A model generated the notes under the pieces. It did no database searches. It was not told the origin of the DNA and was given only the letters and a program-made list of their open reading frames with translations. A program made the translations under genes and the position numbers. Of a stretch of 64,000 bases of DNA, positions 10,956-11,011 are shown piece by piece. Origin of the DNA: Escherichia coli (GTDB taxonomy: Bacteria; Pseudomonadota; Gammaproteobacteria; Enterobacterales; Enterobacteriaceae); assembly GCF_003334785.1 (NCBI RefSeq), contig NZ_QOWV01000001.1. The stretch is one strand, 5' to 3'. The first letter of the stretch is position 1; each line of letters starts with the position of its first letter.

Positions 10956-11011
10956 TGTCACGATTTGCGGAGCTTGTCACAGCTGACAAAGCGAATGTCA
11001 CAGCGAAAAAA
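10956..11011 (+). promoter_or_regulatory. Three direct TGTCA(C) repeats in feaR-feaB divergent promoter region; candidate FeaR activator site
   Basis: TGTCA at 10956, 10975 and 10996 (19 and 21 bp spacing); the second and third fit TGTCA-N8-AAA; located about 60-115 bp upstream of feaB ATG. Assignment to FeaR is from memory of published work and is not verified. Confidence 0.4.

Follow-up and report, generated by a model that had tools for sequence, protein, structure and literature searches.

Two direct repeats on the plus strand of the feaR-feaB intergenic region of Escherichia coli, at 10975-10990 and 10996-11011, very probably constitute the operator for FeaR at the feaB promoter, a two-site arrangement that leaves a third, more distal TGTCAC hexamer outside the array. 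Coordinates are those of the window, the whole stretch of 64,000 nucleotides analysed, and the assignment rests on sequence comparison. Since the two repeats correspond to the operator already published for feaB and tynA, the finding is real but ordinary: Zeng and Spiro (2013; J Bacteriol 195:5141) reportedly defined the FeaR site as TGNCA-N8-AAA, with two copies in both the tynA and the feaB promoters. Organism, promoter, motif and copy number are the same as here, the proximal repeats are no different, and the third repeat is not known to belong to the published site; a full-text literature search for the motif string returned nothing relevant. Significance beyond confirmation of the known operator is accordingly small, and consists of the limitation of the array to two repeats, of a cross-genus footprint showing which operator bases are constrained and of one lead, a CRP-like site that overlaps the first repeat at feaB and not at tynA.

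The feaR-feaB intergenic region and its TGTCAC hexamers

The window displays the E. coli chromosomal gene order ldhA-ydbH-ynbE-ydbL-feaR(-)-feaB(+)-tynA(-)-paaZ(-), and many E. coli chromosomes, among them that of a K-12 strain, match positions 10700-11200 with 100% identity and carry the annotations feaR and feaB there. The AraC-family activator gene feaR (9931-10836, minus strand) encodes a product with 100% identity to the RefSeq "transcriptional regulator FeaR", for which precomputed Pfam assignments comprise PF14525 (AraC_binding_2), PF12833 (HTH_18) and PF00165 (HTH_AraC). The regulated gene feaB (11072-12571, plus strand), annotated in RefSeq as phenylacetaldehyde dehydrogenase, begins with ATG at 11072, the in-frame GTG at 11069 being the start chosen by the ORF finder. 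Between the two genes lies an intergenic region of 235 bp (10837-11071), and interrogation of Rfam with 10500-11400 identified no RNA family. FeaR is known as an AraC-family activator of tynA and feaB (PMC4640556), its signal being aromatic aldehydes that TynA generates (PMC11542736). Among 5426 complete E. coli genomes, the feaR-feaB region was found in 3291 (about 61%) and is nearly invariant where it occurs, with at least 99% identity in 3208 of 3289 genomes; variation within the species is therefore uninformative about constraint.

TGTCAC is present on the plus strand at 10956-10961, 10975-10980 and 10996-11001, with start-to-start distances of 19 and 21 bp. An initial annotation of this DNA had placed TGTCA motifs at precisely these positions, within the divergent promoter region separating feaR and feaB, and was correct on both counts; it described their spacing as about two helical turns, which holds exactly where the interval is 21 bp, the 19-bp interval being 2 bp short. 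The proximal two hexamers read TGTCA-CAGCTGAC-AAA and TGTCA-CAGCGAAA-AAA and, each having AAA 8 nt further on, both fit TGTCA-N8-AAA with no mismatches, as had been claimed. The distal hexamer reads TGTCA-CGATTTGC-GGA (10956-10971) and does not fit this pattern. Across the window TGTCAC is not enriched (28 matches, against 30 ± 5 expected). Its clustering is nevertheless non-random, because in 300 windows of 64 kb simulated under a Markov-1 model three copies never fell on the same strand within 45 bp; the shorter word TGTCA was similarly clustered in threes in 20 of the 300.

Conservation of the paired repeats

The composite pattern TGNCA-N8-AAA-N5-TGNCA-N8-AAA matches 10975-11011, which corresponds to about 1,447,422-1,447,458 of K-12 U00096.3, with 0 mismatches and, when up to two mismatches are allowed, has six matches in the window against 0.91 expected. 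One of these, with a single mismatch, marks the paired FeaR repeats of the tynA promoter (14996-15032, minus strand), which read TGGCA-N8-AAA-N5-TGGCA-N8-CAA. Matches at 34200 and 34644, inside a 1922-aa ORF, and those at 3088 and 15085, all with one or two mismatches, were taken as chance occurrences; the match at 15085 (15085-15121, plus strand) has two.

To define the footprint, 80 loci carrying FeaR relatives were collected, using one genome per species; in 69 of these, feaR and feaB are divergently arranged. The 70 feaB upstream regions containing the composite were reduced to 26 clusters at 85% identity, spanning Pseudocitrobacter, Enterobacter, Klebsiella, Kluyvera, Raoultella, Buttiauxella and Cedecea, among other genera. 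In the resulting alignment, whose anchoring on the composite itself favours repeats 1 and 2, repeat 1 (TGTCACAGCTGACAAA, 10975-10990), the distal monomer site of the pair, retains TGTCAC in 26 of 26 clusters and TGNCA-N8-AAA in 21, while the promoter-proximal repeat 2 (TGTCACAGCGAAAAAA, 10996-11011) retains TGNCA in 26 of 26 and TGNCA-N8-AAA in 25; the two are 21 bp apart in every cluster, and their mean conservation (2.0 bit for repeat 1, 1.66 bit for repeat 2) compares with a background of 0.43-0.5 bit. Features to which the alignment was not anchored (the sixth base C, the AG that follows it, and the distance to the -10 hexamer) agree with it, and an independently made MAFFT alignment of 18 representatives yielded the same conserved blocks. 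A position weight matrix made solely from sites outside E. coli, 50 of whose 58 members are feaB sites from related genomes, placed repeat 2 first (25.2 bits) and repeat 1 second (24.2 bits) among 127,962 window positions. Other TGTCA-like words of the same intergenic region, TGTCA at 10928-10932, GTGAC at 11012-11016 and TTGTCGC at 11021-11027, are not kept across genera, and that at 10928 scores 1.1 bits on the FeaR matrix.

The same composite recurs at tynA. Promoters of this gene in Trabulsiella and Enterobacter cloacae have TGGCA-N8-AAA-N5-TGGCA-N8-CAA, as in E. coli, and in Hafnia and Serratia, where feaR is followed by tynA, a two-repeat composite lies between the genes; in all five cases (E. 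coli, Trabulsiella, Enterobacter, Hafnia and Serratia) the tynA composite consists of two repeats. Conservation of the motif, its recurrence at tynA and the AraC-type domains of FeaR together uphold the earlier proposal that FeaR is the regulator acting through the two proximal repeats.

Upstream of the tynA repeats in the window, the minus strand at 15060-15105 reads TTGTGACGTTGTCACATTATGCATGATGTGTACATCTATTTT, in which GTGACGTTGTCAC forms an inverted repeat and a further stretch contains ATGCAT; this may be the NsrR site reported for tynA. Among more distant relatives, eight loci (L074-L081) from Pseudomonas citronellolis, P. delhiensis, P. alkylphenolica and Pseudomonas sp. encode FeaR-like regulators of about 48-50% identity, with a co-directional feaB-like dehydrogenase gene 0.7-1 kb downstream. 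The TGNCA-N8-AAA composite (at least 14 of 16 positions) was absent from the six of these Pseudomonas loci that were scanned, so that these distant FeaR relatives probably use a different operator. One record of the collection (L021, CACSKA010000006.1), titled "Chryseobacterium sp. 18061", contains an enterobacterial feaR-feaB region nearly identical with the one which the same study gives for Citrobacter sp. 18056, and is probably mislabelled or contaminated.

The distal TGTCAC hexamer

The hexamer at 10956-10961 (plus strand) is invariant within E. coli, and had been taken initially as the first element of a three-repeat FeaR array. That part of the initial annotation did not survive comparison across genera. 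TGNCA occupies the distal site in 4 of 26 clusters and AAA follows at the appropriate distance in none; the other clusters present TGTCGC, TATCAC, TATCAT, TCTTGG, CTGTTT, ATGCCT and other sequences. Mean conservation is 0.59 bit against the background of 0.43-0.5 bit, and the matrix score of -5.0 bits ranks 942nd. In other lineages no third full motif was found at the 19-21-bp position within the 45 bp upstream of repeat 1, the sole third full match, at -35 in locus L042, being out of register and coincidental. TGNCA at -21 from repeat 1 was found in no lineage, and a third repeat in none of six tynA promoters.

These observations bear directly on the possibility that all three TGTCAC copies are FeaR contacts, with the distal one serving as an auxiliary, low-affinity site in E. 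coli and a few relatives that would help to load FeaR or hold a third subunit. The distal hexamer is identical to those of repeats 1 and 2 and lies on the same strand; it is retained in L002, whose FeaR is 96% identical, and in three other clusters; and a third copy so near is unlikely to arise by chance. Given the proximal pair, and computing from intergenic base composition, an additional TGTCA 17-23 bp upstream (seven positions) has a probability of about 0.7%, and TGTCAC of about 0.12%. We nonetheless consider a three-contact operator improbable in view of the GGA that replaces the A-tract, the offset of 19 rather than 21 bp, the presence of TGTCGC, TATCAC, TATCAT or unrelated sequence in 22 of 26 clusters, the negative matrix score, and the uniformly two-repeat tynA promoters.

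That the third copy is pure coincidence within neutral sequence is plausible, if short of probable. Such a reading accords with the lack of TGNCA conservation at the distal site and with the manner in which the pattern came to attention, having been picked out after a scan of 64 kb, a post hoc selection that inflates its apparent rarity. It has to accommodate, however, a conditional probability of just 0.1-0.7%, as well as a partial conservation that suggests some constraint in one sub-clade: ATTGTC or ATTATC, overlapping the hexamer at 10954-10959, is kept in about 12 of the 26 clusters, with variable flanks. We propose that a reason other than FeaR underlies the semi-conservation of this stretch within part of the family.

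One such reason, which we advance tentatively, would be that the distal TGTCAC is embedded in another element serving feaR, either a NAC site or a -10-like hexamer on the minus strand. Besides the partial retention of ATTGTC/ATTATC, a perfect ATA-N9-TAT, the NAC consensus, occurs in the same register in Enterobacter, Lelliottia and Pseudenterobacter, and Zeng and Spiro are said to propose control of feaR by NAC. The minus strand at 10954-10959 reads GACAAT in E. coli and GATAAT in Enterobacter. Together, the ATA-N9-TAT and GACAAT/GATAAT readings weakly suggest that the distal hexamer may overlap an element serving feaR. On the other side, Klebsiella, Raoultella, Kluyvera and Trabulsiella lack the putative element, E. 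coli matches it imperfectly, and TATAGT (10915-10910), conserved more widely, makes a better candidate -10 hexamer for feaR. In E. coli, ATA-N9-TGT spans 10944-10958 and overlaps the distal TGTCAC.

An array of two repeats has a practical corollary, in that the distal TGTCAC should be dispensable in building minimal FeaR-responsive promoters; the FeaR operator has already been used in biosensors of aromatic amines and aldehydes (PMC11542736).

Promoter elements and neighbouring regulatory sites

The probable feaB -10 hexamer, TACACT (11033-11038, plus strand; TAGACT in most relatives), follows repeat 2 at a fixed distance of 21 nt, with mean conservation of 1.59 bit. Transcription would accordingly start near 11045, about 7 nt past this conserved hexamer, and from that predicted start the centre of repeat 2 would lie at -41.5 and that of repeat 1 at -62.5. 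Repeat 2 would then overlap the expected -35 hexamer by 2 bp. Generic sigma-70 and terminator scans of 10780-11120 gave no matches, and no consensus -35 was found for feaB, a result that fits an activator-dependent promoter and is uninformative by itself; supplements of two E. coli transcript-mapping studies contain no entry for feaR or feaB.

The geometry suggests a two-site, class II-type array of the AraC family. Most likely a FeaR dimer occupies the operator, with one monomer on each repeat. Each monomer has two helix-turn-helix units, of which one would read TGNCA and the other the A-tract, a helical turn further along. With its proximal monomer abutting the weak -35 region, aldehyde-loaded FeaR would be able to recruit RNA polymerase as a class II activator, like AraC at araI1-I2. 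Both systems with which this arrangement may be compared have well-established geometries. At araI1-araI2 of araBAD, AraC, as is proposed here for FeaR, activates in a ligand-dependent fashion from a pair of direct-repeat monomer sites that recur every 21 bp and of which the proximal one reaches into the -35 region; the recognition sequence differs, AraC loops through a distant O2 site of which no counterpart is known for FeaR, and the ligand of FeaR is a pathway intermediate (an aldehyde) whereas that of AraC is the substrate. XylS at Pm (TGCA-N6-GGNTA, twice) similarly recognizes bipartite monomer sites in direct repeat with a 21-bp period, and about 2 bp of the proximal repeat lie within the -35, but its half-site sequences differ and their internal spacing is N6 rather than the N8 of FeaR.

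Several further patterns around repeat 1 were considered and rejected. A sigma-54 reading of TGTCAC-N-TTGC failed on inspection, having GT rather than GG and a -24/-12 spacing 2 nt short. An inverted FeaR half-site on the minus strand (TGACA-N8-AAA, from 10979 to 10964), sharing the core of repeat 1, scores -3.7 bits on the matrix, and in Buttiauxella the corresponding top-strand triplet is AAA, not TTT. The palindrome TGTCA-CAGC-TGACA (10975-10988) is unconserved beyond E. coli and a few relatives, and was judged incidental.

On the feaR side, a block conserved across genera (GACTATAGGAAAGAAC, 10907-10925) includes the minus-strand hexamer TATAGT at 10915-10910 (ACTATA on the plus strand), likely the best candidate for the feaR -10. 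If feaR transcription is directed from this hexamer, the PhoB box would be situated just downstream of the feaR start site, predicted near 10903. This box, at 10871-10888 and reading TTGCAACACAAATGCAAC on the minus strand, is an 11-bp direct repeat, TGTTGCA-N4-TGTTGCA (10870-10887), lying upstream of feaR at about 43 bp from its ATG, outside the FeaR array, and conserved throughout the alignment of 18 representatives. With ATGCAT-like cores at an 11-bp interval, it may also resemble an NsrR site. The box coincides with the published PhoB motif of Yang et al. (2012), located at -43.5 to feaR and -192.5 to feaB (PMC3465305), and with PhoB ChIP-seq peak 1447326 of Fitzgerald et al. (2023; PMC10294691); feaR is repressed by PhoB (PMC3465305, PMC10294691).

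PhoB offers another conceivable explanation of the TGTCAC repeats, as TGTCAC equals a half-site of the Pho box (CTGTCAT-N4-CTGTCAY) and ChIP-chip, ChIP-seq and EMSA signals fall within the feaR/feaB intergenic region (PMC3465305, PMC10294691). The peaks, however, map to window position ~10879, which leaves roughly 77-117 bp between them and the TGTCAC copies (PMC3465305, PMC10294691), and the hexamers are spaced at 19 and 21 bp, not at the 11 bp needed by a PhoB dimer. With the mapped PhoB box and the ChIP peak both at about 10879, the TGTCAC repeats are effectively ruled out as the PhoB site, and an identity as PhoB half-sites is scarcely credible.

A different overlap concerns repeat 1 itself. 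Between the distal TGTCAC and repeat 1 lies a strongly conserved block, TTTGCGG (10964-10970), which forms part of a predicted CRP-like site, TGCGG-AGCTTG-TCACA (10966-10981), and the core of repeat 1 supplies the right half of this site. Scoring 8/10 in E. coli, TGCGG-N6-TCACA is the one sequence of the intergenic region to reach at least 8 out of 10 against TGTGA-N6-TCACA. A match of at least 8 is maintained in 23 of 26 clusters, in fixed register around a 6-bp spacer that varies; the left half consistently departs from consensus at positions 3 and 5. The centre of the site, 10973.5, lies about 71 bp from both predicted divergent start sites, and the TTTGCGG/CRP-like block is absent from tynA promoters. 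Repeat 1 reads TGTCACA in 24 of 26 clusters and TGTCACG in two, whereas repeat 2 occurs in ten variants, a disparity that fits a double constraint. We regard it as rather doubtful, if worth pursuing, that TGCGG-N6-TCACA is a CRP site at which CRP and FeaR would share or compete for the bases of repeat 1. RegulonDB may already annotate the CRP-like site for feaR. Reportedly, in the work of Zeng and Spiro, feaB, unlike tynA, was induced only under carbon limitation. An overlap of CRP and FeaR sites, if true, could explain both this feaB-specific dependence and the uniformity of repeat 1 against the variation of repeat 2 and of the tynA repeats; feaR is listed among known CRP targets (PMC3105977).
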